Of a DNA stretch of 64,000 bases, positions 5,370-63,389 are shown in pieces. Every line of letters begins with the position of its first letter. Within the stretch, counting starts at the first letter, position 1. The DNA lies in IMG/VR virus record IMGVR_UViG_3300031992_000008, positions 1-64,000 of that record; one strand, written 5' to 3'. The notes under the pieces were generated by a model, which made no database searches, was not told where the DNA came from, and saw only the letters and a list, made by a program, of their open reading frames with translations. The position numbers and the translations under genes are program-made. This stretch comes from a virus. Taxonomy: Duplodnaviria > Heunggongvirae > Uroviricota > Caudoviricetes.

Positions 5370-5815
5370 TGAAAGACCTCTATATGTTCGGTGTGAACAT
5401 TGCAAAAGCCGACAGCCATAATAAAGTCTATTGCGAAGTACTCAAAGCTATAAAAGCAGGTATACAATCTGGAAAGAAGAGCCTTAGGATCGTCTGTACA
5501 GCTATATCTGATTCTAGAATAGCTACTGGGCCTTGGCCTATTCCTATTAAGATTGGAGACCACCCTGATGACCAAAGCGTCGGAGTGGTTTTCAATACAG
5601 GTTTCTATGATCTTTCTACTGTAACCGTTGAAGAACGAATGTCGTTCATGAAGGGCGCAATGGAAAAATTTGGGAAATTAGCCTTATACTATCTATACAA
5701 CATAGTCTTTCAAGTTATGTGTGAAGCCAATCATTATTATATCATCGCAGACCTAAACTACAAGTTCAGACTAAAATTCGATTTCGAAAGGAGAAACAAA
5801 AATGAACCCATCTGA
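5369..5815 (+). CDS. hypothetical protein (148 aa)
   Basis: AAGGAG SD; TAATG overlap with upstream gene. Confidence 0.55.
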   Translation: MKDLYMFGVNIAKADSHNKVYCEVLKAIKAGIQSGKKSLRIVCTAISDSRIATGPWPIPIKIGDHPDDQSVGVVFNTGFYDLSTVTVEERMSFMKGAMEKFGKLALYYLYNIVFQVMCEANHYYIIADLNYKFRLKFDFERRNKNEPI

Positions 5816-7154: not shown

Positions 7155-8186
7155 ATGCATACATACCGCATTACAACATCAGATTCTCTGCTAGAAATAG
7201 GAGAATATCGAGACATCGGTCACGATGAACTTGTAGACTACGATAGAGTAAGATGCCTCAATGAAAGTGTAGCTAAAAACTGCGCTAATGCCATTTCAGA
7301 CTTTTGTAAAAAACATAAGGGAATTCAATTCAAACCTGCAGATATCACAAAAGTTATTAGGGAAAATAGTGGCATACAATGCACAAGCCTAATGCGTTTT
7401 CTCGGAACACTCGAACAGTCGTCCGAGCAAAAAGAACTTTTGGGCAAGTTCACCAAAAAATGTCCTAAGAACGTTACCTCTGAAAAAGGAGATACAATGT
7501 CAGAAGCATACAAGATCCAAAAAGTCGATGAAAGCGACATCAAGATCGAGCATCTTGAAGATAACGAAGTCATTGGCGAATGGACTCTTACTATCCCTAC
7601 GGCATCTGTGCGCAACAAGTGCTTCGATTTGCTGATGGATATCTATGTGAATCACGAAAATTCGCTTGATATCGTCTGTCTCGAAGCGCTCGAAACTGCG
7701 GTCAACAATGCAGATGTTCGAAAGGAATATGACGTAATGGTAAAAGAACTCATTGACCAAGGAGTTCTCCCCGCATGCTTTGATATCAAGAAGAAAATCA
7801 AGGCTCGTAACAAACTCACAACAACAACCTTAAAGGAAGAATCCACCATGGATATCAAAGAAATAATTAAACTAAAGATGATGACCAAGATCCTCAACAA
7901 GAAGGGTGAAATTGATGTCAAGCAACTGATGATGATTCAGATGCTCTCCAACGACGAAGGCTTTGAAATTACCGATGTCATCAAGACAAAGCTCATGGCA
8001 AGCCTCTTCGACGGTAAGGCCGATCTTGACAACATGACCACTGAACAGCTCATGGTCTATGGTATGCTTCAGAACGGTGAATTCGATATCCAGAAGCTCA
8101 TCGAAATCAAGTTCATGAGCAAGATTCTCGACGAAGACGACGAAGAAGTTGAAGACGACAAGGACAAGGCAGCTGAACGTAAGTAA
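7155..8186 (+). CDS. hypothetical protein (343 aa) with about 4 internal C-terminal repeats
   Basis: AGGAG SD; repeated K(L/F)M..(I/L)...D....L.. units in residues 238-330; last gene before terminator 8212-8242. Confidence 0.65.
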   Translation: MHTYRITTSDSLLEIGEYRDIGHDELVDYDRVRCLNESVAKNCANAISDFCKKHKGIQFKPADITKVIRENSGIQCTSLMRFLGTLEQSSEQKELLGKFTKKCPKNVTSEKGDTMSEAYKIQKVDESDIKIEHLEDNEVIGEWTLTIPTASVRNKCFDLLMDIYVNHENSLDIVCLEALETAVNNADVRKEYDVMVKELIDQGVLPACFDIKKKIKARNKLTTTTLKEESTMDIKEIIKLKMMTKILNKKGEIDVKQLMMIQMLSNDEGFEITDVIKTKLMASLFDGKADLDNMTTEQLMVYGMLQNGEFDIQKLIEIKFMSKILDEDDEEVEDDKDKAAERK

Positions 8187-8211
8187 GCTGTAGTGATCCG
8201 TGTACATTGAG

Positions 8212-8242
8212 AGTGGCGCTAGCAGTGCCACTTTCTTTTTTG
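8212..8242 (+). terminator. intrinsic terminator
   Basis: agtggcgctagcagtgccact then TTCTTTTTT. Confidence 0.6.
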
Positions 8243-8254
8243 TAAATTTCTGTG

Positions 8255-8288
8255 TTCCGGCGGTATATTAAATAGAGAATCTTAACCA
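8255..8288 (+). promoter_or_regulatory. early-class promoter box (GGTATATTAAATAGAGAATCTTAACC)
   Basis: Motif conservation. Confidence 0.6.
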
Positions 8289-8305
8289 TCAACAAGGAGT
8301 AAGCC

Positions 8306-8407
8306 ATGAAAAAGATTCTTACCGCAATCGCTGTACAGTGGGCGATTCTTATAACTTTGGACACTGTAGAAAGAGCATACCACATCTGGAGGAAGAAAAA
8401 TGTCTAA
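8306..8407 (+). CDS. small protein (33 aa), not in ORF track
   Basis: AAGGAG SD 7 nt before ATG 8306, directly downstream of promoter box; MKKILTAIAVQWAILITLDTVERAYHIWRKKNV. Confidence 0.3.
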   Translation: MKKILTAIAVQWAILITLDTVERAYHIWRKKNV

Positions 8408-8771
8408 TACCAGCAGCTCTACTCGCCAGCTTATCGACGAAAATGCAAATATCGTTAATGATCTCAGGGTAAAGACTGAGAACAAGCGTTTCGTCAGGTT
8501 TGTCAAGGGTAAGTCCTATTCTATTAGGGTCGTCGAAAAAGTTTTCGTGAAAGATACTACGACAGTTCTGTTCCTGATCAGAGAGACTACTGTAACGAAA
8601 CATGGAGCTGCCTTCGGGCAGATTTATCGTAAGTGTCTTTTCGAAGATCTGAAGAATGATCTAAAACAGACTCTGTATAAAGTCATCGGAAGAATCTGTA
8701 ATAACGAAACATCATTCCAGAAGTATCTACGCCAAGCCAAGAAGAAATTTGAAGAGGCTGAGGTGGCCTAG
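8400..8771 (+). CDS. hypothetical protein (123 aa)
   Basis: GGAGGAAG SD. Confidence 0.55.
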   Translation: MSNTSSSTRQLIDENANIVNDLRVKTENKRFVRFVKGKSYSIRVVEKVFVKDTTTVLFLIRETTVTKHGAAFGQIYRKCLFEDLKNDLKQTLYKVIGRICNNETSFQKYLRQAKKKFEEAEVA

Positions 8772-8774
8772 AGA

Positions 8775-8802
8775 CAAGCGGTTAATAGCCGCTTTCTTTT
8801 TT
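8775..8802 (+). terminator. intrinsic terminator
   Basis: aagcgg ttaata gccgctt then TCTTTTTT. Confidence 0.6.
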
Positions 8803-8830
8803 GTATATAATTTAATAGACTAACTTAACC
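8801..8830 (+). promoter_or_regulatory. early-class promoter box (GTATATAATTTAATAGACTAACTTAACC)
   Basis: Motif conservation. Confidence 0.6.
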
Positions 8831-8845
8831 AAACTCAGGAGACTT

Positions 8846-9352
8846 ATGAAAAACAAAAAAGTCATAACGGAAGATATGGGCGTTGACGAAGAGCTCATTA
8901 AATACGGAAAGCAGGTTCTTGCAGATGCACTGAAACGCGAAGAGCATCATGTGATGACACAAGAACCGTCTGACGAAGATGCTTCGAAGTACGTAGAACA
9001 GAGTAGGTACGTCTTTAGTAGGGCGTACGAAATGTTCTGCAATTTCATCGATAATACAATCATCGATGTTACTAAGACTACAGAAGCCGAATTTGACAAG
9101 GCTGTATACAAGTTTGCCATGGTGCTAGTCCCGGCACTTGAAAAAGAATTCCCGGAGGTGTTCAATGCGTTTATTGCGCCATTGATGCCTGAAGACAAGA
9201 AAGAGGCTATCGTTGTGAGAAACTCCATTCTTAGCTACTGCGGAAATCTCTTAGTTCAACCATTAGTATTGGCTATCGCAACCAGATTCCTTGAACATCG
9301 AGACATCGAGTTTAAGACTTCCGGTAAAGCTAATAAGGTTGTAATGAATTAG
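8846..9352 (+). CDS. hypothetical protein (168 aa)
   Basis: AGGAG SD; first gene after promoter box 8801-8830. Confidence 0.6.
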   Translation: MKNKKVITEDMGVDEELIKYGKQVLADALKREEHHVMTQEPSDEDASKYVEQSRYVFSRAYEMFCNFIDNTIIDVTKTTEAEFDKAVYKFAMVLVPALEKEFPEVFNAFIAPLMPEDKKEAIVVRNSILSYCGNLLVQPLVLAIATRFLEHRDIEFKTSGKANKVVMN

Positions 9353-14580: not shown

Positions 14581-15120
14581 ATGGAAACGGTAACACCAGA
14601 GAACATTGACGACTTTGTTGATAAGGCTATCAATGCTTGTTACGATAGGGCGAATCGAGCATTAGTCGATATAGCCAACAGACCAAGAGAAGTTCCGAAA
14701 CCAGAACCAAAACCGGAACCTAAACCAAAGCCTAAGCCAAAGCCTAAAGAATCTGAGGAGGATCCAGAAAGAATTCACGATAAGGATTTTAGAATCCTAG
14801 CGAAGAAGTATGGATTCGATATTAGAACCGAAGGCCCAGATGATGATGATGCACTGTACGCATATGATGCAATACATCCTACGGCTAATGACTGGTTCCT
14901 GAATGTAGCTATGCTTAAATCCAGTGGTGTAGCAATCGTTGGACGCAAGTATACTACAGAATCACGTAACAAAGGAATGGTCTTCAATATAATCGGTACG
15001 ACAGAATGTACTACTGTCAAAGAACTGGAAGAAGCCATCTGCACCATTGCCAAAAGTAGAGACGAATTCTTCAAACCTAAATCTACTAAGCGTAGTCAGA
15101 ACAGATCTCGTACTTGGTAA
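14581..15120 (+). CDS. hypothetical protein with (PK/PE)n linker
   Basis: AAGGAG SD; PKPEPKPEPKPKPKPKPKE repeat. Confidence 0.55.
   Translation: METVTPENIDDFVDKAINACYDRANRALVDIANRPREVPKPEPKPEPKPKPKPKPKESEEDPERIHDKDFRILAKKYGFDIRTEGPDDDDALYAYDAIHPTANDWFLNVAMLKSSGVAIVGRKYTTESRNKGMVFNIIGTTECTTVKELEEAICTIAKSRDEFFKPKSTKRSQNRSRTW
14696..14752 (+). repeat. coding low-complexity repeat (CCNAAR)n encoding (PK/PE)n
   Basis: Direct repetition in sequence. Confidence 0.7.
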
Positions 15121-15151: not shown

Positions 15152-16747
15152 ATGGAAATCAATGCACTTACTATCAGTGCCATTGCAGTGGGAGCTCTCC
15201 TGCTGCTCCTCGCCTTCATTTTCATTATTGGATACGTTAAAGCTCCGCCTGATACCGCATATGTCATTTCCGGTATCCGTAAACAGCCTCGCTTCCTCAT
15301 TGGTCGAGCTGGTGTTCGTATTCCGTTCTTGGAACAGAAGGACGAGCTTGTACTCAAGGCTATTCAAGTCGATGTAAATACGTCCGATGAAATTCCCACA
15401 GCGGATTTCATCAATATTACTGTCGATGCAAACGTCAACGTACAAGTTGATACTGAACTAGAAAAGAAAGAAGAAGAACGTTCTGGATTGCTTCAGAAAG
15501 CCGCTAGAAACTTCCTCAATCTTAAGGAAAAAGACATCATGGCAATGGTTCGACCAGTTCTTGAAGGTAATGTTCGAGAAATCGTTGGCAAGATGAATCT
15601 CAAAGCTATGGTGAATGATCGCCAGAAATTCTCTACTCTGGTTTCTGAAAACGTGCAGCCTGACCTTGCTGCCATGGGCTTAAAGCTCGTGTCTTTTAAT
15701 GTGCAGAACTTTAAGGACAAGGAAGGCACTATTAGGAACATGGGTATCGACAATATTGAAGCAATCCGTAAGGATGCTGAAATCGCAAAGTCAAATGCCC
15801 AGAGAGATATTCGCATTGCTAAGGCTGAAGCTGACAATGAAGCCAGCATTGCAGAAGTAAAGTCTAAAACTGCAGTCGCCGAACGTGAGACTGATCTTGC
15901 TATCAAGAAGGCAGACCTCAAGAAGAAGTCTGATATCCAAGAAGCAATCGCCGATGCTGCTAAGGGCATCGAAGCCGCTAATCAGCAGAAAACCTTGAAT
16001 ATCACGGAAGCCGAAGCTGAAACTGCAAAGCAGATGAAGCTCATCGAAGTCCGTCAGGAAGAAGCTAATGTTACCGAAAAGGAACTTGTTGCCAAGGTGA
16101 TTCGTCCGGCTGAAGCTGCAAAGCAAGCCACTATCATTAAGGCTGAAGGTGAACAGAAGGCTAAGCTCATTGCTGCTGAAACCAACCTTGAAACCACCAA
16201 GAAGAATGCTGATGCTGAAAAGTATCAGCGTGAACGTGAAGCTGAAGTCAAGCTGTTCAATGAACAGAAGGATGCGGAGGCCGAGCGCTACAAACAAGAG
16301 CAAAACGCCGAAGGTGTCAAGGCTATGGCTGACGCTGACCTTAAGACTGCTCTTGCTAAGGCTCAAGGTGTTGAAGCTAACGGTAAGGCTGAAGCTGCTG
16401 CTATCGAAGCTAAGGGTCTCGCCGAAGCCGAAGCCAAGGACAAGATGGCTGATGCTATGGCTAAGTTTGGCGATGCCGCTAAGCAAGACCTTACTCTTGA
16501 AACCGTTAAGGCGTTTGTTGCTGTTCTTCCGGAAGTTGCTGGTAACATTACCAAGCACTTCGAGAAGGTTGGTAACTACACTATCTACGGTGAAGGTGGC
16601 GGTGCTAAGCTGGTTGGTGATGCAACTCAGGCAATGTCTCAGATTATTGCATCCGTCAAGGAAGCAACTGGTCTTGATGCCGCAGGTATCTTGAACAGCT
16701 TCCTTGGTAGCCGTACTGCACTCGCAGTAGCTGACAAGAAAGAGTAA
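15152..16747 (+). CDS. flotillin (SPFH/band-7 domain, FloT/YuaG-like), 531 aa
   Basis: N-terminal TM helix then YVKAPPDTAYVISG SPFH start; VSFNVQNFKDKEGT..IAKAEADNEA..KGLAEAEAKDKMADAMAKFG aligns almost residue-for-residue with B. subtilis FloT; EA-rich coiled coil. Confidence 0.9.
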   Translation: MEINALTISAIAVGALLLLLAFIFIIGYVKAPPDTAYVISGIRKQPRFLIGRAGVRIPFLEQKDELVLKAIQVDVNTSDEIPTADFINITVDANVNVQVDTELEKKEEERSGLLQKAARNFLNLKEKDIMAMVRPVLEGNVREIVGKMNLKAMVNDRQKFSTLVSENVQPDLAAMGLKLVSFNVQNFKDKEGTIRNMGIDNIEAIRKDAEIAKSNAQRDIRIAKAEADNEASIAEVKSKTAVAERETDLAIKKADLKKKSDIQEAIADAAKGIEAANQQKTLNITEAEAETAKQMKLIEVRQEEANVTEKELVAKVIRPAEAAKQATIIKAEGEQKAKLIAAETNLETTKKNADAEKYQREREAEVKLFNEQKDAEAERYKQEQNAEGVKAMADADLKTALAKAQGVEANGKAEAAAIEAKGLAEAEAKDKMADAMAKFGDAAKQDLTLETVKAFVAVLPEVAGNITKHFEKVGNYTIYGEGGGAKLVGDATQAMSQIIASVKEATGLDAAGILNSFLGSRTALAVADKKE

Positions 16748-16781
16748 AACTAAAAGATTTTACCCATAAAACCTCGATGGG

Positions 16782-16816
16782 GAGAGGCTCTAGAAATAGA
16801 GTCTCTCTTTTTTTCG
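16782..16816 (+). terminator. intrinsic terminator after flotillin gene
   Basis: gagaggctct agaaat agagtctctc then TTTTTTT. Confidence 0.7.
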
Positions 16817-16879
16817 TAAAATTCTATGCTCCGACATTATATTATTAATGGCCTTATAATCCTATAAGACAGTGTTACT

Positions 16880-17087
16880 AGCCCACAAAGACTAGTGCAA
16901 CCGTCATATCTAACCGGAAGATATGACTAACTGTGCGTTTGTTCCATTCGCACATAAAAGGAAAATGGATATTATTGAGACAACGGTACTGTCTCATAGG
17001 TGATCCGCATCTTATGTATATTTGATGCGATAAGGTCACACCGAACGGATAACGGTAAATATTATCCAAAAGGCAAGGAGGTACTTC
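16880..17087 (+). ncRNA. multi-hairpin structured region (candidate ncRNA or riboregulatory leader of tiny ORF)
   Basis: Five consecutive stems: gtcatatct/agatatgac, tgtgcg/cgcaca, tgagaca/tgtctca, cgcatc/gatgcg, ggataa/ttatcc. Confidence 0.3.
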
Positions 17088-17180
17088 ATGTACAGATACC
17101 GCTTCTTCCTCAGCAACCTCGACGTAGTCGAAGTCTATGCAGACTCATACGCCGATGCCATCGCTGAATTCCTCGTCTAA
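17088..17180 (+). CDS. tiny ORF (30 aa), not in ORF track
   Basis: Strong AAGGAGGT SD 7 nt upstream; GC3-rich codons like highly expressed genes; preceded by a multi-hairpin leader. Confidence 0.3.
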   Translation: MYRYRFFLSNLDVVEVYADSYADAIAEFLV

Positions 17181-17234
17181 AAAAGACAGGAATAGGAACT
17201 CTCGTGCGCAGACAGCGAGAATAAATAATTAGGC

Positions 17235-17264
17235 GAGAATCTCTAAAGATGGCTTAGAGAATCT
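17235..17264. repeat. 11-bp inverted repeat (GAGAATCTCTAA n7 TTAGAGAATCT), 1 mismatch
   Basis: Seen in sequence; 80 nt upstream of DUF1874 gene. Confidence 0.6.
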
Positions 17265-17345
17265 AGGGAATGCAAAACCACTTAACTGTGGCTTCTCGAA
17301 ACTGTGCTGGCCCAATGACCAGAAACCGTTACAAAGAGGTGTCCT

Positions 17346-17639
17346 ATGACAACAATTTGTAATGCCTTCAGCCTCCAGATGATGAAGGAATTCCCTGCGA
17401 CAATCACGATTGAAGAAATCGCTGAACCGTCCAAGGAAGAACTTTCGAAGATGGATTCGGCTGTTGGTCATGCTGACACTGCAGCTGTCCTTGGTGTGCC
17501 GTTCGTTCGCAAGAACGTTCAGCTCGAAAAAGGCGATGTTGTGGTTGTCGCTCAGCTTACTGGAGGCCGTCTCCCGGAAGGTTCTAGAACCCTACCGGAA
17601 GGCTTTGCCTTTAAGTGGCTGAAGGTGACCATCGGCTGA
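17346..17639 (+). CDS. DUF1874 (STIV B116-like) family protein
   Basis: MTTICNAFSLQM... and SAVGHADTAAVLG resemble the DUF1874 signature (..NS.L., SAIGHEsTA.LL); AGAGGTG SD. Confidence 0.5.
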   Translation: MTTICNAFSLQMMKEFPATITIEEIAEPSKEELSKMDSAVGHADTAAVLGVPFVRKNVQLEKGDVVVVAQLTGGRLPEGSRTLPEGFAFKWLKVTIG

Positions 17640-17688
17640 TAGCTGAAGAGCTACGCACGAATACAATGCCAATGTATAAACGTGCGAA

Positions 17689-17732
17689 TAAAAAAAAGGA
17701 TAGCAGCCTATGCTGCGTCCTTTTCTTTTTTC
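17689..17732. terminator. bidirectional terminator between convergent genes
   Basis: A8 run, hairpin aggatagcagc ctat gctgcgtcct, T-rich run. Confidence 0.5.
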
Positions 17733-18010
17733 CTAGCTTTAGATCTCCTGCAAGCTTCTAGATACTTAGCATATCTCACAGGATCCTTTTTCATAGCTTC
17801 ACGCTTCTTAGCATTACGCTCACGTTCTTTTTCCTTAAACAATGGATCAGTAGCCTTTCTATGGTCATATGATTTCTTTGATCTTACGGCATCTGGAGTT
17901 CTGCCTTTGCTCTTCCGTTTCTTTTTTACAGGAGCTGAAATGTATGCATTAATAAATGATAAAGAGGATTCTGTCAGTCGTGCTTTTGTATCCTTGTATA
18001 TGTCGCTCAT
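17708..18010 (-). CDS. small highly basic Lys/Arg-rich protein (100 aa), possible DNA-binding or internal virion protein
   Basis: AGGAAGG SD; KKKRKSKGR..KKREAMKK..RRSKARKKEK; immediately downstream of capsid-like gene. Confidence 0.6.
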   Translation of the reverse strand: MSDIYKDTKARLTESSLSFINAYISAPVKKKRKSKGRTPDAVRSKKSYDHRKATDPLFKEKERERNAKKREAMKKDPVRYAKYLEACRRSKARKKEKDAA

Positions 18011-18013
18011 AAT

Positions 18014-18050
18014 ACCTTCCTATAATAGTCTCATTCTTATATATTTTTTC
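18014..18050 (-). promoter_or_regulatory. early-like promoter box on minus strand (TATATAAGAATGAGACTATTATAGG)
   Basis: Resembles GTATATAATTTAATAGACT box; precedes SD of basic-protein gene. Confidence 0.35.
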
Positions 18051-18063
18051 TTTTTTATAAATA

Positions 18064-18109
18064 AAAAGAAAAAAAAAATAAATGGCCTAGACCGAAGTCT
18101 AGACCATTT
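18064..18109 (-). terminator. strong intrinsic terminator after capsid-like gene (12-bp stem, CGAA/TTCG tetraloop, T10 on minus strand)
   Basis: aaatggcctagac cgaa gtctagaccattt preceded by A13 on plus strand. Confidence 0.75.
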
Positions 18110-18125
18110 AAAGTCTTCACAACAA

Positions 18126-19964
18126 TTAGTGGATGAACGTTTCCGTAGGCAAGTACGGGCTCGTTCCAGCAAACGAATAGAAATTCGCGCTATTGTTGGT
18201 AATTGTCACACGACCAGCACCCGGAAGCACGTCAACGTAAGCGTAACGGCGAGAGGTGAGGATCGTCGGAACATAGGTATTGCGCGGGCTGTTGTAGCCA
18301 GAGCCAGCCTGTTCGAGCATGAAGCTATAGGTGTACAGCTTGTAAGTCATCTGATCCTGAACGGTCGGGATGAAGAGCACACGGATAGCACCCTGCGGGA
18401 TGTTCGGGGAGGACACAACCTTCCAGCTGTTGATGCCCTGATACTGACCGAAGGCAATGTTAGCATTCACGCCAGCATATTCGGACTGACCGTTACCCTG
18501 ATAGACCCAGTTGATTTCCGGCACGAGGGCGGCATCCAACGGGTTGCAAGCGGCAACGAAGTAACCCTGTTCATAATGGTACATGTTGATGATGCTCATA
18601 GAGAGATGGTCGAGCACCTTGCCAAGCATCTTGGGCCATTCAGCCGGGTTCAGCTGGTAGTTACCAACGGGCTTAGCAGAGAATGCACGAACGAAGTCAC
18701 CATTCGGAGCCTGTTCGATAGCATCATCGATAACTTCATCCATGAAGTTCACACCATCCAAGTCCATCTTCTGAGCGAGGAAGCTAGAGAGGATTTCGAC
18801 GAGCTTGGAGACACCATTCAGAGTGAACATACGGAGCAAATCCGTGATGTATTCATTCGGAACCGGAGCTTCAAGGTGTTCGCCAGTACCGATGTGGATT
18901 TCCTTATCGCGGATATCGAAGCCAACCTGAAGCGTGCTGTTGTTCATAACAGAGGACACGAAGGCCTTGATCATCACGAAATTGAGCTTGTCGCCCTGAT
19001 CCATGAGAGTGAGACGACCAGTCTTCACGTCAACGTCACCGTAGACGGAGTCAGTGAGGGTCACAATCACAGTACCAGCTTCGCCACCAACGCAAGTGGC
19101 ATCAACTTCGACATCGAGCGAGATCACACCCTTGATGCCACCACGACGAGTACCGCATTCGATCTTGCAGTTCTTGACGAGGTCATTGGCAGTGAGGGCT
19201 TCACCATTGAGGGTGAGTTCGGTAGCAAGTTCAGTAGCAACGCCATTGTAGAACACGGTGTCGCCAGCGGCAGGAGCCTTGAACTGAGCGCAAATGATAG
19301 AAACATTCACGTCAACTTCATCGTTGTCCTTAACCATGGCAAGAGCGTCAGAATACTTCTGAGTGACAGTGCCATAGGTGGTCGTGGTCTTGTCATTACC
19401 GTATTCGTCCACATCCTTACCAGTGAGGAGGTTCATGGAGAAGCAACGGTTCGTGAACTTGAACTTCACATCTTCAGCAAGGCGAACCTTAGAGACAGCG
19501 GTATCGATGTCCATGAGGTTTTCAGGCACATAGTGCTTGTTGCCCTGCAAGTCCTTGAGCCAAGGATGGAGGTAGTTGATGGTGAACTTCGGCTTTTCGA
19601 CAGCTTCGGTCGGGAGAGCCTTGTTCATAGCGGTACGAGCCCAGCTCTTACGGAGCATCGGGGTCTGAAGGAAGGACATCGGAGAAACAGTACCGAGAGC
19701 AGCTTCTTCAAGAGCTTCAAGGCGAGAGGCTTCAGCGATGGTCTTGAACTGCTCGGCTTCTTCGTCATTAAGACCCTGAGCGAGCATTTCAGTATAACGA
19801 CCAAAGAGGGAGTTGTCGGACATCACATCTTTAAAGTCGTCGGCGTTGAACACGTTGATGTTGCTAGCGGAGAATTCTTCAGCCACTTCACGAAGAGTAG
19901 AGGTAAAGGAATCACTCACAGCAGACACCTTCGAGGACGGTTGCATGTAAGAAATGTTAGACAT
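18126..19964 (-). CDS. major capsid-like structural protein (612 aa); function tentative (alternative: nuclear-shell-like protein)
   Basis: Strongest codon/GC bias in window; AAGGAAG SD; followed by 12-bp-stem CGAA-tetraloop terminator; Ala/Glu-rich N-terminal segment resembling a cleavable propeptide. Confidence 0.6.
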   Translation of the reverse strand: MSNISYMQPSSKVSAVSDSFTSTLREVAEEFSASNINVFNADDFKDVMSDNSLFGRYTEMLAQGLNDEEAEQFKTIAEASRLEALEEAALGTVSPMSFLQTPMLRKSWARTAMNKALPTEAVEKPKFTINYLHPWLKDLQGNKHYVPENLMDIDTAVSKVRLAEDVKFKFTNRCFSMNLLTGKDVDEYGNDKTTTTYGTVTQKYSDALAMVKDNDEVDVNVSIICAQFKAPAAGDTVFYNGVATELATELTLNGEALTANDLVKNCKIECGTRRGGIKGVISLDVEVDATCVGGEAGTVIVTLTDSVYGDVDVKTGRLTLMDQGDKLNFVMIKAFVSSVMNNSTLQVGFDIRDKEIHIGTGEHLEAPVPNEYITDLLRMFTLNGVSKLVEILSSFLAQKMDLDGVNFMDEVIDDAIEQAPNGDFVRAFSAKPVGNYQLNPAEWPKMLGKVLDHLSMSIINMYHYEQGYFVAACNPLDAALVPEINWVYQGNGQSEYAGVNANIAFGQYQGINSWKVVSSPNIPQGAIRVLFIPTVQDQMTYKLYTYSFMLEQAGSGYNSPRNTYVPTILTSRRYAYVDVLPGAGRVTITNNSANFYSFAGTSPYLPTETFIH

Positions 19965-20045
19965 TGTTTGTCTTCCTTATTTTTAGGTGAAACAGAGCCA
20001 AAACATAAAGTTATCTTGACTCAGAAACGAAAAAACCTATTTATA

Positions 20046-20057
20046 CTAGGATCCTAG
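20046..20057. repeat. perfect 12-bp palindrome CTAGGATCCTAG in divergent promoter region
   Basis: Between capsid-like (minus) and rusA (plus). Confidence 0.6.
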
Positions 20058-20197
20058 GTATTTTCTCAATGTATAGTTAGATGGAGTTAAAATTTTTGAG
20101 TGAAAATTGTAAGTTTTTTGCGTATCTAGATGTTGAACGAACAAAGATTGATTTATCAAATGAACTTTTTATAAATACAATATCAAAGGAGTCTATC

Positions 20198-20725
20198 ATG
20201 GCAGAATGCAAAGCTGAAGTTAAGCTGAGTAAGAAAGAACAAAAAGCTCAGGCTGAATATGAGAAGCTTGTAGAAGCAGAAAAGAAAAAGGTCACTAAAG
20301 TTCTACATATTACTATTATGGGAGAACCTAAAGCTTGGAAGCGTGAGAGAGCAAGACTTGGCAAGGGAAGAACTTTCGTTGCCATGTATGACCCTAACAC
20401 TTCCATAAAGAAGGTTATCCAAGACTATATTATTGACGAGATGGCTGAACAAGGCATTTCTAAAATAATGGAAGCTCCGGTATACTTAAGAGTGGAAAGT
20501 TATAAGAAGATTCCCAAATCTCTTAGTGCAGCTAAAGCAAGGCTGTATGAAGAAAAATGGCTTCTTCCTGCGTCTAAACCGGACGTTGATAACTATTCAA
20601 AGCTCTTCATGGATGCCGCAAACAGTATTCTATGGGATGATGACAAACAGGTAGCCCATCTTGAGGCTTGGAAGTATTTGTCAATCAACCCTAGATTGGA
20701 GATCTTTGTTGAATTCAAGGAGTAA
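20198..20725 (+). CDS. rusA: RusA-family Holliday junction resolvase with Lys-rich N-terminal extension
   Basis: KPDVDNYSKLFMDAANSILWDDDKQV matches the RusA catalytic Asp motif (D.DN..K...D.L..DD); AAGGAG SD at internal ATG 20198. Confidence 0.65.
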   Translation: MAECKAEVKLSKKEQKAQAEYEKLVEAEKKKVTKVLHITIMGEPKAWKRERARLGKGRTFVAMYDPNTSIKKVIQDYIIDEMAEQGISKIMEAPVYLRVESYKKIPKSLSAAKARLYEEKWLLPASKPDVDNYSKLFMDAANSILWDDDKQVAHLEAWKYLSINPRLEIFVEFKE

Positions 20726-40366: not shown

Positions 40367-40555
40367 TCAGCCGATTGTTTGAATTGCTGCTGCTAGTATT
40401 CCGGCTATAAATGCCAACAACAGTTGTCTTCTCATTGTTACTACGCCGTACAGAAGACATAATACGACGATGGGTAGTAGTATGATTATCATAATATACC
40501 TCATCTTATAATATGAGGCCATGACACAAAATTTTACGGATCTTAGAAATCTCAT
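40367..40555 (-). CDS. small membrane protein (up to 62 aa; start uncertain)
   Basis: Hydrophobic ORF ending 17 nt before the SD of the next small TM gene. Confidence 0.3.
   Translation of the reverse strand: MRFLRSVKFCVMASYYKMRYIMIIILLPIVVLCLLYGVVTMRRQLLLAFIAGILAAAIQTIG
40527..40538 (+). promoter_or_regulatory. class-2 promoter element AAAATTTTACGG
   Basis: Same element at 51014 and 59288; about 130 nt upstream of giant structural gene. Confidence 0.4.
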
Positions 40556-40668: not shown

Positions 40669-43600
40669 ATGGCTGCAGATTCTCTACCGAAATATATGCA
40701 CCCGCATTCGAGTGCACGTATTATCGATAATGCCGTTCTGACTGTCTCGTCTAGCGGCTTGACCAATATGTTCATTGCCCTTGAAGCTGAAAAAGGTATG
40801 CCGAATGAAGCCACCTATATCACTACCCAGAGTGAGTGGATTTTCAACTTTGGCGAACCCAACTACAGCAAGTATGGACAAGGAGCATTGAACGCTCTTA
40901 ACTACATCAACGCAGGTGGTGGTGCATGGGTGATCCGTGTTGTGCCTGATGATGAAAGATTCGCTTCGCTCTCTCTTGGCATCGGCTATCGTGCAAACCA
41001 GCCCTTTACCAATGATGAAGAGAAGTACAGACGTCTTGAAATGACTTCTGAACAGATTAAGTTGTGGAATGCTGCCCAGACTGATGATACCCTCAAGTAT
41101 GCAATCGATAAGAAGTCTGGCAACTTTGCTATTCTTCCGTTGTTCTACATCGAAGAAAATGGCAACATCAACGCTGCTTTGAAGCTCCAGACTCTTGACG
41201 AAATTGAATCTTACAAGCTCAAGAACACTGATGCTAGCAAGACCATCAATGCCGTTGCTAAGAAGAATGTGATTACCTATTCTAATCCGTTCATCGAAGT
41301 CTCCGGTGTCTTTGATCCTGAAAACGAAGAACTGAGATTCCTCGCAGACAGAGCTTATACCGAATTCGTTGAAGGTCAGGAAATCGGTGGTATTGAATTC
41401 GGCAATGTTGCTGAAGAAAACTGCAAGGCCTATATCCGTATCGATAAGTACTTTGCTACTGATGCAAATGATGACACGATCAAGGATAAGACTGGCAGTG
41501 TCAAGACTTTTGACTACTATGATGCCGCTTACAAGGCTGCTCAGTCCAGCAATCAGAATGCTGAAGAAAGCGATGGTTCTGGTGAATTCGATCCGGCTGA
41601 TCATGTGTTTGCGTTCTCTGGTACGATCCGTATCTATTCCGAAGCTGCCGATGGACAGCCGTTTGGCGAAGTGATCTATGATGTGCTCGCAGCTATTTTC
41701 GGTACCGATGCACAGACCGTAACAAAGGGTAAGGCAGAATTCAATACTGAACTCAATGGCGACGCTAGCTTCTCTGATGATATTCAGAAGGGTAAGAAGC
41801 ATACTGCTAAGTGGCTTCAGGAAAACCGTAATGAATACTCCAACGCTAGAACTGTCTACAAGAAAGTCAAGCCTAGCGAATTCTTCGGTAGCGCCAATAC
41901 GATCGTTAATACCAAGATTCTTCTGAATATTGGTACTCCCGATTCTCAGACTTGGGATTACTCCTTCGAAGTTTACAAGGAAAGTCTGCCCGGTCAGTAC
42001 ATTCCTGTCGCATCTTCTCTCATTGACAACAGCACTGCCTTTACGGAAGTAGAGCTCACTGAATGGAATGCCCTGCATGGTACATTCTATAAGCTCGGCG
42101 GTAAGGCTGATCCTGAAAGCGATTTTGAAGATGTCGTTGACAGCACTCAGCAGAAGATTGTTAACAAAGAACCGTCTACGGGTGCTACCAAGAACTCCAC
42201 GCTTTACTATGTGAAGTATGTGACGACTGGTGAACCTGTCTACTCGACCTCTATTACTGAATCTGAAGCTTACAGATTCAACAGAGTTAAGGCTACATCT
42301 GAAGATGAAACCGTGACCTTGTCTACTCCGGCTGAATTCCCGGCTTCTGCTATGAACACCAAGTATGCAAGCCTCTTGAATACTAAGGTGTCCTTCAGCT
42401 CCGATGTTTCTAAGGAAGGTCACTGGGAAGCTACTGTTCCTGAAGGCGCTACCCTGACGGATGCAGTTGACTTCATCAACTTCTTCTTCAGCGCTCCTTC
42501 GATGATTGAAACTAAGGACAACTCTAACGCTGGTGAATTCCTCGTTAACGTTTCCTTCAGCGAAAATGCTTACATCGGTGAAAGCGAATATGTGTCTATC
42601 AAGGGTACTGCTCTTGGAAACCTCTTCAAGCGTGCTGACGATGGTGCTATTCAGGACAATAACAATGAAAATGTGACGGATGATACCAATGAAGGTATCT
42701 CTGGTACTTCTACTGGCGAATCTGACGAACCGAAGTACATTCTTCGTACTGACATCAAGCCGTCCGAAGTTCCTAGCACTGTTGCTAAGTTCATTGTCAA
42801 CGGTAGCTTCCAGCCTGTCGAAATCGACAACATTCCGGCATCTGCTCTTCTCTGCTTGCTTGCTGATAAGACCAACAGAGAAAATGGTACTGCTGAACTC
42901 AAGACCGATCTTGGCGAAAATTTCGAATTCGAATATGCCAATACTTGTGTCTTGCTGGCTGGAATCGATTCTGTTGCTGGTTTCAATGGCACGATTACGC
43001 TTGCTTTTGTTTCTGACTCTATCGAAAACTTGGCTATCAAGGCTTATGACGAAGCTGTTAGCGGTGGTGAAACCTCCATTACGGCTACTCAGATCCCCGG
43101 TGAAAAGGTTCCGTACGTCAGATACTCTGACAACTTTGATGGTTCTATCTTTGAACCTAACTATGACTACATTGAACGTATCTATGATACCGTTGGTCTC
43201 GTGACTACGACTTACACGGCCTTCGATTATCCTGAAAATGCCAACTACTTCCCGTACAATATCCAAGATGGTGTAAAGGTGAAGACCCCGGAAATCTGGG
43301 CTGGCATTGAAAGTGCTAAGGAAGGCTACTCTGTCGCTGCTGCTAGAGACGAAATCAAGGATGTTGATCTTCAGGATCTCAAGCTCGATAAGACTTGCTT
43401 TGCTGAATTCTGCCGCTTCTTGCCCAAGGGCTCTGGTAAGTGGTACAACAGACTCGGTGTGTCGCTCTCCTACGATGACAACTTCGACGGTACCTATCCT
43501 GATTGGAGTATGTTCAAGCTCACTGTGTTCGAAAGAAGTAACGGTGAAGAGATCTCTCGTGAACAGTTCGCTGTCTCGTTGGATCCTGATGCTGTGTCCG

Positions 43601-44937
43601 CTACTAAGGAAAGTCTCTTCATTGAAGACGTCGTTAACACCTACTCGTCTTACCTGACTTGTGTGGTGAACTATGATAACCTCCGCAACTTCATTGAAAC
43701 GAAGTTTGCTGTGGTTGACGACAACAACAAGCCCGTCAAGGATGAAGATGACAATGAAATCTTCGTTAGCGTTGATACCGTCATCAAGTACATCTTCGGA
43801 CGCATCGATCTCGATGATTTCAATAAGAGAACGTTCGGCGATGACTATCAGGTTAACACCCTCAGCAAGTATGCATTTACTTCGTTGATGAGCGTTAACG
43901 GCGTGGATGAAGATGGCTGTGCCTTCGACACCTCTCGCTACAACAGTGATAGTCTCTATGAATACACTGAACCCTTCAATTCGTTCTGGTTCTTCACGAC
44001 TGTTTCCTCTGCTGCTTCGCTCTACTTGGGCGGTGGCTCCTATGGTAACGGTTGGGGCTATGAATACGAAGACGAAGAGGGTAATCCGCAGCATACTAGC
44101 ACGCTGACTCAGGCTCTCGTAAGAGCATACAGTGGTGTAACTGATCCGTTCATCACTAACACGAACCTCTGTGAATTCGACCTCATGTTCGATGCTAACT
44201 ACGAAACTGACGTTCGTACTGCTATGACGAAGCTGGCCTCTGAAACTCGTCAGGACTGTATCGCACTCCTTGACCAAGGCTTGTCTATCGCCAATGCTAC
44301 ACAGGCTATCGATAAGAGAAAGAACGAAGAAAACTTCGACACCTTCTATGCTTCCATCTTTACGCAGCATCTTGTTGTGAACGATGTGTGGTCTGGTAAG
44401 GTCATCAAGGTTACTCCGACATTCTTCCTTGCTTCGAAGATTCCTGCTAACGATACTGCTAACGGCAAGACTATGAACTTCGTTGGCCCCCGTCGTGGTA
44501 CTATCGGTGGATTCCGTTCTATTTCGTTCATGCCTACAGCTTACGAAATGAGCGAACTCTACAAGGCTCAGGTGAACTACATCGAACGTGACGCTCTTGG
44601 TGTGTTCTTTGCTACTGAACTCACGTCTCAGACTAAGAATACTCCGTTGACCCTTATCCATGCTGTTCGCGCTATCTTGGCTCTGAAGAGAGACTTCCTC
44701 AAGATCAGCCGTAACTACCGTAGCGAATATGCTACTGGTGCTGTTCAGGCTAACTTGCTGGGCGAACTCAACGCTTGTGCTGCCGAATACATCCTTCAGG
44801 GTGCGTTCAAGTACATCACGCCTAAGATTGCCTCTACGGACTACGATGTCCAGCAGAGAATCTGCCGCATTGATGTGTCTGTGGCCTTCGTTGACATCAT
44901 GGAAAGATTCGTCTTCTCCTTCGTTGTTGAACGCTAA
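40669..44937 (+). CDS. giant acidic virion structural protein (1422 aa), likely tail-associated
   Basis: Strong AAGGAGG SD; class-2 promoter element upstream; terminator downstream; followed by baseplate spike gene. Confidence 0.8.
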   Translation: MAADSLPKYMHPHSSARIIDNAVLTVSSSGLTNMFIALEAEKGMPNEATYITTQSEWIFNFGEPNYSKYGQGALNALNYINAGGGAWVIRVVPDDERFASLSLGIGYRANQPFTNDEEKYRRLEMTSEQIKLWNAAQTDDTLKYAIDKKSGNFAILPLFYIEENGNINAALKLQTLDEIESYKLKNTDASKTINAVAKKNVITYSNPFIEVSGVFDPENEELRFLADRAYTEFVEGQEIGGIEFGNVAEENCKAYIRIDKYFATDANDDTIKDKTGSVKTFDYYDAAYKAAQSSNQNAEESDGSGEFDPADHVFAFSGTIRIYSEAADGQPFGEVIYDVLAAIFGTDAQTVTKGKAEFNTELNGDASFSDDIQKGKKHTAKWLQENRNEYSNARTVYKKVKPSEFFGSANTIVNTKILLNIGTPDSQTWDYSFEVYKESLPGQYIPVASSLIDNSTAFTEVELTEWNALHGTFYKLGGKADPESDFEDVVDSTQQKIVNKEPSTGATKNSTLYYVKYVTTGEPVYSTSITESEAYRFNRVKATSEDETVTLSTPAEFPASAMNTKYASLLNTKVSFSSDVSKEGHWEATVPEGATLTDAVDFINFFFSAPSMIETKDNSNAGEFLVNVSFSENAYIGESEYVSIKGTALGNLFKRADDGAIQDNNNENVTDDTNEGISGTSTGESDEPKYILRTDIKPSEVPSTVAKFIVNGSFQPVEIDNIPASALLCLLADKTNRENGTAELKTDLGENFEFEYANTCVLLAGIDSVAGFNGTITLAFVSDSIENLAIKAYDEAVSGGETSITATQIPGEKVPYVRYSDNFDGSIFEPNYDYIERIYDTVGLVTTTYTAFDYPENANYFPYNIQDGVKVKTPEIWAGIESAKEGYSVAAARDEIKDVDLQDLKLDKTCFAEFCRFLPKGSGKWYNRLGVSLSYDDNFDGTYPDWSMFKLTVFERSNGEEISREQFAVSLDPDAVSATKESLFIEDVVNTYSSYLTCVVNYDNLRNFIETKFAVVDDNNKPVKDEDDNEIFVSVDTVIKYIFGRIDLDDFNKRTFGDDYQVNTLSKYAFTSLMSVNGVDEDGCAFDTSRYNSDSLYEYTEPFNSFWFFTTVSSAASLYLGGGSYGNGWGYEYEDEEGNPQHTSTLTQALVRAYSGVTDPFITNTNLCEFDLMFDANYETDVRTAMTKLASETRQDCIALLDQGLSIANATQAIDKRKNEENFDTFYASIFTQHLVVNDVWSGKVIKVTPTFFLASKIPANDTANGKTMNFVGPRRGTIGGFRSISFMPTAYEMSELYKAQVNYIERDALGVFFATELTSQTKNTPLTLIHAVRAILALKRDFLKISRNYRSEYATGAVQANLLGELNACAAEYILQGAFKYITPKIASTDYDVQQRICRIDVSVAFVDIMERFVFSFVVER

Positions 44938-44945
44938 AGTAAATA

Positions 44946-44984
44946 GAATTCCTGTATCCAAAAGATACAGGAATTTTATATTTT
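44946..44984 (+). terminator. intrinsic terminator after giant structural gene
   Basis: aattcctgtatc caaaa gatacaggaatt then TTATATTTT. Confidence 0.65.
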
Positions 44985-45010
44985 GAACTTTCAAATAGTA
45001 AGGAGTTACT

Positions 45011-50986: not shown

Positions 50987-51000
50987 ACACTATTTAATAT
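50987..51000 (-). promoter_or_regulatory. early-class promoter box on minus strand (reverse complement ATATTAAATAGTGT, then AACTTAAC-AAAGGAG)
   Basis: Near-identical to box at 8801-8830. Confidence 0.55.
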
Positions 51001-51013
51001 ACATACTCGACGT

Positions 51014-51040
51014 AAAATTTTACAGTAACTTCATAATGAA
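51014..51040 (+). promoter_or_regulatory. class-2 promoter: AAAATTTTAC plus AACTTCATAATGAA
   Basis: Both conserved elements adjacent, 13 nt upstream of SD. Confidence 0.45.
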
Positions 51041-59191: not shown

Positions 59192-59287
59192 GGTACACCT
59201 CTTGAGGTTTGCTTCATAGTCATATCAAGAATGTGCACTCGCATCATTCAGGTACTATTCAGCATAAGTTAATATGGGATCATAGAT

Positions 59288-59332
59288 AAAAATTTTACGG
59301 TACATAGATAATCTACCGAACTTATGAATGAA
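59288..59332 (+). promoter_or_regulatory. class-2 promoter: AAAAATTTTACGG .. GAACTTATGAATGAA
   Basis: Both elements upstream of 59347 gene. Confidence 0.45.
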
Positions 59333-63299: not shown

Positions 63300-63345
63300 T
63301 ATGGTTAAGAATTATAGCCAAGATATAATATATTTTCTATTTATA
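63300..63345 (-). promoter_or_regulatory. early-class promoter box on minus strand (TATATTATATCTTGG..CTTAACCA..ACAAGGAG)
   Basis: Full early-box architecture in front of 61986..63281. Confidence 0.55.
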
Positions 63346-63351
63346 ATAAAT

Positions 63352-63389
63352 TACGAAAAAAAAGAAAGAATGGCATGAAGCCATTCTTA
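63352..63389 (-). terminator. intrinsic terminator (minus strand)
   Basis: aagaatggc atga gccattctt with T-run on minus strand. Confidence 0.6.

Follow-up and report, generated by a model that had tools for sequence, protein, structure and literature searches.

A conserved, predicted regulatory leader with a small open reading frame upstream of a phage AcrIII-1-type gene

Introduction

What does a stretch of phage DNA contain when it separates two protein-coding genes and yet presents no evident gene of its own? The question is raised by positions 16748–17345 of a 64,000-nt stretch of viral DNA (positions 1 to 64,000 of the IMG/VR record IMGVR_UViG_3300031992_000008, hereafter the window), where a gap lies between a flotillin/SPFH gene and a gene of the DUF1874/AcrIII-1 family. 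To our knowledge, hardly anything is known of the ways in which phages control their ring-nuclease genes. Proteins of the DUF1874/AcrIII-1 family are viral enzymes reported to destroy cyclic tetra-adenylate, which type III CRISPR systems use as an alarm signal (10.1101/778746), and the role of AcrIII-1 in native systems is still under debate (10.1101/2023.01.10.523387).

A preliminary description of the gap, made from the letters alone, drew attention to an array of hairpins and a 30-codon open reading frame (ORF), and offered three possible roles: it might be a structured noncoding RNA, it might be a riboregulatory leader that includes a leader peptide, or it might encode a very small functional protein. 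Comparison with related loci indicates that the gap is occupied by a conserved element, absent so far from the catalogues, that probably acts as the regulatory leader of an AcrIII-1-type gene and includes a true micro-ORF.

A portable unit upstream of one DUF1874 clade

The same unit was detected in five lineages, which represent three gene neighbourhoods and many separate metagenome assemblies, and it is always found directly upstream of one DUF1874 clade. Judging by their sample numbers, the assemblies may stem from ruminant-gut projects. The lineages, reached through DUF1874 homologues at 97%, 86%, 78% and 73% identity, are designated W (the window and a 96% variant, L012), B (L013–L016), C (L017 and L018), D (L019) and E (L025–L027). 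Among contigs whose DUF1874 protein is identical, the gap too is 100% identical, so these provide no comparative information. The order of the unit is a terminator hairpin, the sequence TTTTTT-CGTA-N19-TATATTA, 130–240 nt of hairpins, a Shine-Dalgarno sequence (SD) with an ORF of 30 or 31 codons (the mini-ORF), a spacer of 151–165 nt and finally the DUF1874 gene. It is absent upstream of more distant DUF1874 genes (P0004, P0005, P0006, P0009 and P0023). When viral, metagenome and genome collections were scanned with sequence patterns, all that came back besides the known copies were chance matches to a portal gene and to a Ketobacter contig.

When the window is compared with the 96%-identical L012, the noncoding parts of the gap show a rate of change per site that is 2–5 times lower than that of the DUF1874 coding sequence (0.028 substitutions per site in the leader, 0.022 in the mini-ORF and 0.012 in the spacer, versus 0.054 in the coding sequence). 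Taken across lineages, the comparison supports a unit tied to one DUF1874 clade, a mini-ORF that is coding, selected pairing in leader and spacer, and selection on the hairpin that covers the ribosome-binding site (RBS) of DUF1874.

The mini-ORF

The perfect SD and the 30-codon ORF that were first described are both present, and a further hairpin follows the stop codon.

17075–17082, plus strand: SD AAGGAGGT of the mini-ORF, 5 nt before the ATG at 17088
17088–17180, plus strand: 30-codon ORF with its ATG at 17088, product MYRYRFFLSNLDVVEVYADSYADAIAEFLV
17200–17220, plus strand: hairpin after the mini-ORF stop, UCUCGU/GCGAGA, then A/U-rich UAAAUAAU

The preliminary description made its reading depend on conservation of the ORF and the hairpins in relatives. 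For the ORF, this conservation is seen in all five lineages, which agree in its start, frame, SD, length and stop and share nine invariant residues. Either GGAGG or GAAGG is found at an equal distance from the start in each, and the ORF has 31 codons in the lineages other than W. The products are as follows.

Lineage W: MYRYRFFLSNLDVVEVYADSYADAIAEFLV
Lineage B: MYEFQFFLSDLRYVVVYANNYFEALANILEP
Lineage C: MNEYHFVISNGSYVVIYADSYASALEQILGV
Lineage D: MIEYHFVLSTGSFVVVYADSYSAALEYILGL
Lineage E: MNEYHFTISNGSYVVVYADSYASALEQILGL

The ratio of nonsynonymous to synonymous change (pN/pS) is 0.18–0.95, below 1 in all lineage pairs. Both substitutions relative to L012 (2/2) are synonymous in the mini-ORF frame and non-synonymous in an overlapping frame, and the mini-ORF was called as a gene in L008, L035, L039 and L044. 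This pattern of change indicates that the mini-ORF evolves as a coding sequence and is a genuine gene.

Its codons had been likened to those of highly expressed genes on the basis of a high G+C content at third positions (GC3). The third positions are indeed C-rich: GC3 is 0.68 and 65% of codons end in C, compared with a GC3 of 0.32–0.51 in most genes and 0.61 in the major head protein gene, and in four of the five lineages C-ending codons make up 67–77% of the mini-ORF versus 22–29% of the adjoining DUF1874 gene. However, only 16 of 29 codons match those preferred in the head protein gene, so the bias is not simply one of optimal codons and the likeness holds only in part.

The product matched no known protein or domain. 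There was no match in Pfam or PHROGs, a comparison with the PDB gave only an 11.6-bit chance match, a phmmer search of 1.84 billion representatives returned the peptide itself alone, and a tandem-profile search with the peptide found nothing at E <= 10. A single-sequence AlphaFold model of the 30-mer is one long helix (predicted local distance difference test score, pLDDT, 89.6), which is uninformative without an alignment. The proposal that the mini-ORF is an unusually accessible, unpaired window was not supported by partition-function folding. The hairpin after the stop recurs at the same place in every lineage, within the least conserved segment of the unit; from the stop to the first helix of the domain described below, identity between the more distant lineages is only 27–54%.

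A folded domain over the DUF1874 start

The array at 16900–17070 was initially taken as the focus of structure, a placement that has to be revised, as the best-conserved element is instead found between the mini-ORF and DUF1874, at 17237–17364. It comprises five helices, P0–P4, and the strands between them.

17237–17246/17254–17263, plus strand: helix P0, GAAUCUCUAA/UUAGAGAAUC, adjoining an invariant UAGGG
17264–17306, plus strand: conserved core, consisting of UA, P1, an internal loop, P2 and a single strand
17266–17270/17293–17297, plus strand: P1, GGGAA/UUCUC
17271–17277, plus strand: invariant internal loop UGCAAAA
17278–17291, plus strand: hairpin P2, CCAC/GUGG, with a UAA-containing loop
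17298–17305, plus strand: invariant single strand GAAACUGU
17307–17322, plus strand: helix P3, CUGG/CCAG (CCAGUC/GACUGG in lineages C–E), with two double-sided changes
17327–17364, plus strand: hairpin P4, about 16 bp, enclosing the DUF1874 SD (GAGG, 17336–17339) and AUG (17346–17348), with an outer stem CGUUACAAA/UUUGUAAUG that involves Cys-Asn codons and an inner stem UGUC/GACA that involves codon 2

Across six sequences, 217 of 219 pair cells in this domain are canonical and 15 of 42 pairs have changed on both sides. These counts were made in Python on a hand-made, anchor-based alignment, which was used because MAFFT misaligns P0, P1 (at an AA insertion) and P3. RNAfold gives the same helices separately in each lineage, P0 among them, where six of ten pairs have changed on both sides. 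In P1, an AA insertion specific to W (17269–17270) is matched by a UU insertion (17293–17294) that lengthens the helix, and P2 shows a change from A-U to G-C between lineages.

P4 is predicted to fold at −14.0 to −20.9 kcal/mol in all lineages with the unit; DUF1874 genes that lack the unit mostly give −4 to −10 kcal/mol at the same place. Its inner stem pairs the 5' untranslated region with codons 2–4 and is fully compensatory (UGUC/GACA, GAUGG/CCAUC and GUACUUA/UAAGUAC), and one pair of the outer stem, which involves the synonymous position of the Asn codon, varies between G.U, G-C and A-U. Both spacer changes between the window and L012 fall just 5' of the AUG, in or beside the P4 loop. The 26 nt from 17356 are invariant across lineages save for one synonymous change, in coding sequences that otherwise differ by 20–27%.

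At the start of the DUF1874 coding sequence, positions 17356–17392 (UUUGUAAUGCCUUCAGCCUCCAGAUG) are invariant in all five lineages except for one synonymous change, and DUF1874 genes lacking the unit encode the same starting residues with other codons. A further hairpin is found there, CCUUCA/UGAAGG (CUUCAG/CUGAAG in other lineages), with an anti-SD-like CCUCC in its loop.

A single copy of the core was found per locus, in the window and in the fetched loci, by nhmmer and regular expressions. Rfam 15 gave no matches for the whole window at the gathering threshold, and in E-value mode positions 16650–17450 gave only noise (terminator and antisense matches, at 14–25 bits versus cut-offs of 45–90). 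Twelve related loci likewise gave no Rfam matches, and E-value mode on four loci with the unit found nothing on the unit itself. Neither the RNA nor the mini-protein matches a catalogued family in Rfam or Pfam.

The hairpin-array leader and its promoter-like site

The 5' part of the unit consists of a promoter-like site and a row of short stem-loops, in which the five perfect 6–9-bp stems reported for 16900–17070 were recovered along with two further stems 5' of them.

16812–16844, plus strand: promoter-like site TTTCGTAAAATT-N-TATATTA, a motif common to L013, L019 and L025–L027
16831–16860: second promoter candidate, CCGACA-18-TATAAT
16850–17074, plus strand: hairpin-array 5' leader with seven stem-loops, from folding and comparison (16853–16868, about 16877–16898, 16903–16927, 16932–16954, 16976–16996, the composite 17000–17045, and 17047–17067)
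16853–16858/16863–16868 and about 16877–16898: the two further stems
16903–16911/16919–16927: stem 1, 9 bp
16932–16937/16949–16954: stem 2, 6 bp
16976–16982/16990–16996: stem 3, 7 bp
17006–17011/17024–17029: stem 4, 6 bp, lengthened by GUGAUC/GGUCAC
17047–17052/17062–17067: stem 5, 6 bp

In every full-length copy the CGTA-N19-TATATT site has identical spacing, and a transcription start near 16850 is predicted. The site conforms to a recurring intergenic consensus, yCGTAAAATTT-N13/14-TATATTA, oriented toward the downstream gene, whose upstream half is unlike the sigma-70 −35 box. In the window this consensus occurs at 8238–8270 (plus), 16812–16844 (plus), 40509–40541 (minus), 50995–51027 (minus), 59270–59302 (minus) and 63326–63358 (minus), and in relatives at 5697–5725 of L013, 1414–1441 of L023 and 1404–1432 of L024. 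Since it also precedes other genes of the phage and its relatives, it is probably the kind of promoter that phages of this group ordinarily use.

The leader folds better than dinucleotide shuffles of itself (z = −2.84 for 16860–17090, with 1 of 200 shuffles as good, and z = −2.95 for 16850–17087), as do all four full copies, from W, B, D and E, with z between −2.7 and −4.7 and five to seven short hairpins each. Its sequence is hardly alignable, with 27–29% identity between W, B and D, and even D and E are only 68% identical here, compared with 94–95% in the neighbouring parts and 95% in the DUF1874 coding sequences. Hairpins that correspond in position among C, D and E stay paired through double changes (for example GGCAG/CUGCC, GGUAG/CUACC and GACGG/CCGUC), and all four stem substitutions between the window and L012 (4/4) turn a Watson-Crick pair into G.U on the plus strand. 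The z-scores and compensatory changes indicate that the array is conserved as structure and not as sequence, which extends the conservation in relatives from the ORF to the hairpins. Positions 1–25 of the Logan contig L017 are Illumina adapter sequence (GTTCAGACGTGTGCTCTTCCGATCT), an assembly artefact, and were left out of the leader comparisons.

Wobble pairs also bear on the strand. The 3' domain contains 16 G.U cells and no A.C cells, all of the former on the plus strand, and this pattern, together with the promoter-like site, the SDs and the gene orientation, argues for a plus-strand RNA. Two other structural ideas were set aside: two loop motifs that recur, ACGGUA with two occurrences in the window and ACGGAAU with two in L013, have complements near the DUF1874 SD, but by eye this complementarity is not shared between lineages, and a hammerhead-like or other ribozyme core found no match by eye or in Rfam.

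Proposed mechanism

Positions 16812–17364 may be transcribed as the 5' portion of a single mRNA whose last gene is DUF1874, and together with that gene they may make up a portable expression cassette placed in variable accessory slots; a rough probability of 55% is assigned to this reading. The best reading of the unit is a conserved cis-regulatory leader with a translated small ORF that would control translation of the ring nuclease. That the whole stretch moves with the DUF1874 gene as one unit likewise favours a structured leader plus a translated small ORF among the roles first suggested, and the observations accommodate a leader peptide and a trans-acting protein alike. The functional steps, namely the transcription start, translation of the mini-ORF, a limit set by P4 on DUF1874 translation and any switching, are read from the features above and would proceed as follows.

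Transcription would begin at the CGTA-N19-TATATT site. The first 235 nt or so would fold as a row of short hairpins, drifting in sequence and keeping their pairing, which would likely serve RNA stability or 5'-end protection, or act as a protein-binding scaffold. The 30-codon ORF, with its strong SD, would be efficiently translated into a small conserved peptide. The next 130 nt or so would fold as the multi-helix domain P0–P3 with its invariant unpaired strands, and P4 would bury the DUF1874 RBS, so that translation of DUF1874 would stay low until P4 is opened. The invariant strands of P0–P3 would be the likeliest site at which a factor sets the level of the ring nuclease; candidate factors are a small ligand, the mini-ORF peptide, the protein made from DUF1874, and a host RNase, for example RNase III with the ~16-bp P4 as its substrate.

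Several observations weigh against this mechanism or the evidence for it. No conserved anti-sequestor pairing by which the core, or translation of the mini-ORF, could be connected to the opening of P4 was found in consensus folds, and ordinary translational coupling is ruled out by the distance of the mini-ORF stop from the DUF1874 AUG (165 nt in the window and 151–165 nt across lineages). Some of the SD purines of P4 are placed in an internal loop or form G.U pairs, and the RBS may therefore be only partly occluded; in addition, one DUF1874 gene that lacks the unit, in L024, also reaches −16.7 kcal/mol at its start. The alignment of the 3' domain was fitted by hand to the structure, and the five lineages are effectively three deep, so that the covariation is without formal statistical power. 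The folding energy of the spacer alone is unexceptional (z −0.97 to −2.2), and the minus strand folds thermodynamically about as well, so that folding energy alone does not separate the strands.

A more specific and rather improbable version makes P0–P3 a sensor of type III CRISPR conflict, binding cyclic tetra-adenylate, its cleavage product or the DUF1874 dimer. Binding through the A-rich invariant strands (UGCAAAA and GAAAC) may then open or close the RBS hairpin. If this were true, the phage would make its ring nuclease on demand or autoregulate it, and the element would become the first example of an RNA sensor linked to cyclic-oligoadenylate signalling; a literature search returned no paper linking a riboswitch to such signalling among the matches listed.

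Alternative explanations

The mini-ORF could instead encode a trans-acting small protein, either a partner or regulator of DUF1874 or an anti-defence factor of its own, that is merely co-transcribed, the RNA structures serving only mRNA stability or processing. This is somewhat unlikely as a full account, and it overlaps the cis-regulatory leader without excluding it. A residue pattern kept over about 50% divergence, with alternating hydrophobic residues and then an amphipathic Y-x-x-A-[LI]-x-x-[IF]-L end, speaks for it, as do a pN/pS below 1, the best SD of the region combined with a strong codon bias (67–77% C-ending codons in four of five lineages), and strict co-occurrence with one DUF1874 clade. 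However, over larger distances the mini-ORF shows weak purifying selection (pN about 0.3, with pN/pS reaching 0.95), no homologue was found elsewhere by phmmer, profile search, PDB or Pfam, and the single-helix AlphaFold model is uninformative. Such a protein would also leave unexplained why conservation is highest in the noncoding 3' domain and in the 26 nt with which the conserved coding stretch begins.

Other explanations detach the hairpins from the control of DUF1874. Small RNAs that mimic CRISPR repeats (Racrs) are described as encoded by viral genomes in PMC10651486, and the array might be a stand-alone anti-defence RNA of this kind, a CRISPR-repeat decoy or a sponge for a host RNase or effector, that lies beside an anti-CRISPR gene by location. 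This precedent, a setting that resembles an anti-defence island (a Tad2-like gene and DUF1874), hairpins with 5–9-bp stems and 5–12-nt loops, and an array that evolves much faster than its neighbours yet keeps its hairpins (68% versus 94–95% identity between D and E) are consistent with this, but the idea is doubtful: stem sequences vary freely between lineages, the opposite of fixed-repeat mimicry, there are no direct repeats and no Rfam match, and, with neither a terminator nor a T-run separating it from the mini-ORF, the array reads as a 5' leader. The folded element could also act as DNA, as an attC-like single-strand recombination site of a mobile cassette or as a replication or packaging signal. 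Pairing alone cannot tell folds of single-stranded DNA from those of RNA, the unit occurs in three unrelated neighbourhoods in a slot that varies between close relatives, and the attC idea has been raised for a 'DUF1874 motif' by Weinberg et al. 2017 (PMC5737381). A DNA role is nevertheless very unlikely, as there is one copy per locus and never one in consecutive intergenic regions, no integrase was seen among the neighbouring genes, the element sits inside the unit between the mini-ORF and DUF1874 and not at its edges, wobble pairs are all on the sense strand, and the last helix, made of the SD, the AUG and codons 2–6, points to translation. Finally, short hairpins and 30-codon ORFs are common in sequence of 40% GC, and the z-scores of the spacer are unremarkable, but chance hairpins with a chance ORF in AT-rich spacer DNA are scarcely credible: the comparative data already contradict this, with ORF, structure and order kept in five lineages, fewer substitutions than in the adjoining coding sequence, and compensatory changes.

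Flanking genes and phage setting

The genes and signals around the unit are consistent with an accessory region of a phage genome.

13862–14428: Tad2-like gene (PF11195, E = 9.5e-24)
15152–16747: flotillin/SPFH gene, the upstream border of the gap
16779–16810, plus strand: terminator-like hairpin with a 14-pair stem and a T-run, ending the flotillin/SPFH gene
17346–17639, plus strand: DUF1874/STIV B116-like (AcrIII-1 family) gene of 97 residues, downstream of the unit
18126–19964: major head protein gene (phrog_20655)
20081–20725: RusA gene

A hairpin with a T-run like that at 16779–16810 also stands ahead of the unit in lineages B, D and E (L013, L019 and L025). The window's DUF1874 protein matches Pfam PF08960 at 24.3 bits (E = 3.6e-5), just below the 26-bit cut-off, and also phrog_5063; its sequence matches in the PDB are 2J85 (5.6e-5), 2X4I and 6SCF, with STIV B116 and SIRV1 ORF114 included. 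There are 996 DUF1874 homologues, and precomputed PF08960 assignments are present on all 120 among the matches listed. These matches assign the downstream gene to the DUF1874/AcrIII-1 ring-nuclease family, with catalysis as a prediction. Its protein is listed under P0130, identical to the product of 17346–17639, in a cluster table on a 235,300-bp contig; the phage may therefore far exceed the 99.9-kb JGI (Joint Genome Institute) contig.

The head protein and RusA genes mark the window as phage DNA, and the Tad2-like, flotillin/SPFH and DUF1874 genes look like an anti-defence island that holds the gap. The slot itself is variable. L009, with a head protein that is 98% identical, has three unrelated small genes (7466–8926) between flotillin and a 100-aa gene, and in the relatives L010 and L011 (83%) DUF1874 is directly preceded by other genes, with no gap. 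The gap is not a decayed gene by this comparison, as the island proteins of L009 and L011 have no tblastn match in it.

The statement that no ORF above 60 aa lies in the gap is correct for the plus strand, where the maximum is 55 aa, but not for the antisense strand, where two longer ORFs are found, at 16878–17069 (63 aa, TTG start) and 17229–17471 (80 aa, partly overlapping DUF1874). The 63-aa ORF was rejected as a gene, with four of six substitutions between the window and L012 changing the amino acid and no counterpart in other lineages, and neither antisense ORF appears to behave as coding. The 55-aa plus-strand ORF, with a GTG start, was likewise rejected, because L012 substitutions are mostly non-synonymous there and synonymous in the mini-ORF frame. 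With the antisense ORFs set aside, the gap is the longest gene-free stretch of the window, the next being about 350 and 290 nt by a crude greedy tiling. A blastn search of 16700–17400 against 50,697 phage records gave no match, and a scan for transfer and transfer-messenger RNAs found none. No copies elsewhere in the window and no iterons were found, which speaks against the element being a dispersed repeat, a core-based promoter family or an iteron-containing origin.

Elsewhere in the window, very long stop-free ORFs mirror each other at 40669–44937 (plus) and 40684–44994 (minus), one of 1436 aa opposite one of 1422 aa, either of which may be the gene, and a 791-aa antisense ORF at 17682–20057 (plus) opposes the head protein gene at 18126–19964 (minus). 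A predicted 179-aa protein at 14581–15120 contains a (KPEP)3(KP)n low-complexity tract and has no family match.

Implications

About 550 nt of conserved RNA structure and a micro-protein thus precede an enzyme of 97 residues and appear to move with its gene between phages under constraint. The cassette is a small, synthesisable test system for RNA-level control of an anti-defence gene, and it supplies a candidate new cis-regulatory RNA and a candidate new micro-protein family for the catalogues. It also serves as a warning that the part of such a system under regulation can lie in 'empty' intergenic DNA beside anti-defence genes.

Comparison with known systems

Racr-type decoys resemble the unit by location only. 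RNAIII/hld of Staphylococcus aureus is a dual-function structured RNA that carries a small ORF, and a long multi-hairpin RNA with an embedded ORF of about 30 codons is common to both; unlike RNAIII, the RNA described here runs on into a protein gene and looks like a leader, with no sign of trans base-pairing targets. Phage morons and anti-CRISPR operons share with the unit an own promoter, a terminator-bounded accessory gene and a variable slot beside anti-defence genes, and, as with morons and the acr promoters controlled by anti-CRISPR-associated (Aca) proteins, expression appears to be tightly controlled. In contrast to Aca-controlled operons, no helix-turn-helix Aca gene is present, and RNA structure, along with an ORF of 30 residues, would supply the control elements.

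Helices that covary about the unpaired and invariant strands UAGGG, UGCAAAA and GAAACUGU, followed by a hairpin over the SD and AUG, are riboswitch-like in layout, whereas the narrow distribution (five lineages, all metagenomic) and the lack of an Rfam match and of a switch helix are not. The 'DUF1874 motif' is characterised in Weinberg et al. 2017 (PMC5737381) as multistem, with a conserved internal loop, in 5' untranslated regions near DUF1874 genes; there it is said to occur typically in consecutive intergenic regions (RNA-ORF-RNA-ORF) and is suspected to be attC-like DNA. P0–P3 upstream of DUF1874 fits this verbal description, which is the basis of the comparison; the element differs from the motif so described in having one copy per locus, in lying inside a predicted transcription unit and in ending with a helix of translation signals.

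The erm/cat-type attenuation leaders (ermC and cat) also have a short upstream ORF with its own SD, here conserved in five lineages, and in these and other SD-sequestering leaders the downstream SD and AUG lie in a stable hairpin, as in P4 of all lineages. Mutually exclusive pairings that couple the leader ORF to the sequestor were not found here, and the mini-ORF stop is 165 nt from the AUG. Unlike the erm/cat-type leaders, this unit conserves the peptide sequence itself, and a separate conserved multi-helix domain stands between the mini-ORF and the hairpin over the DUF1874 start.

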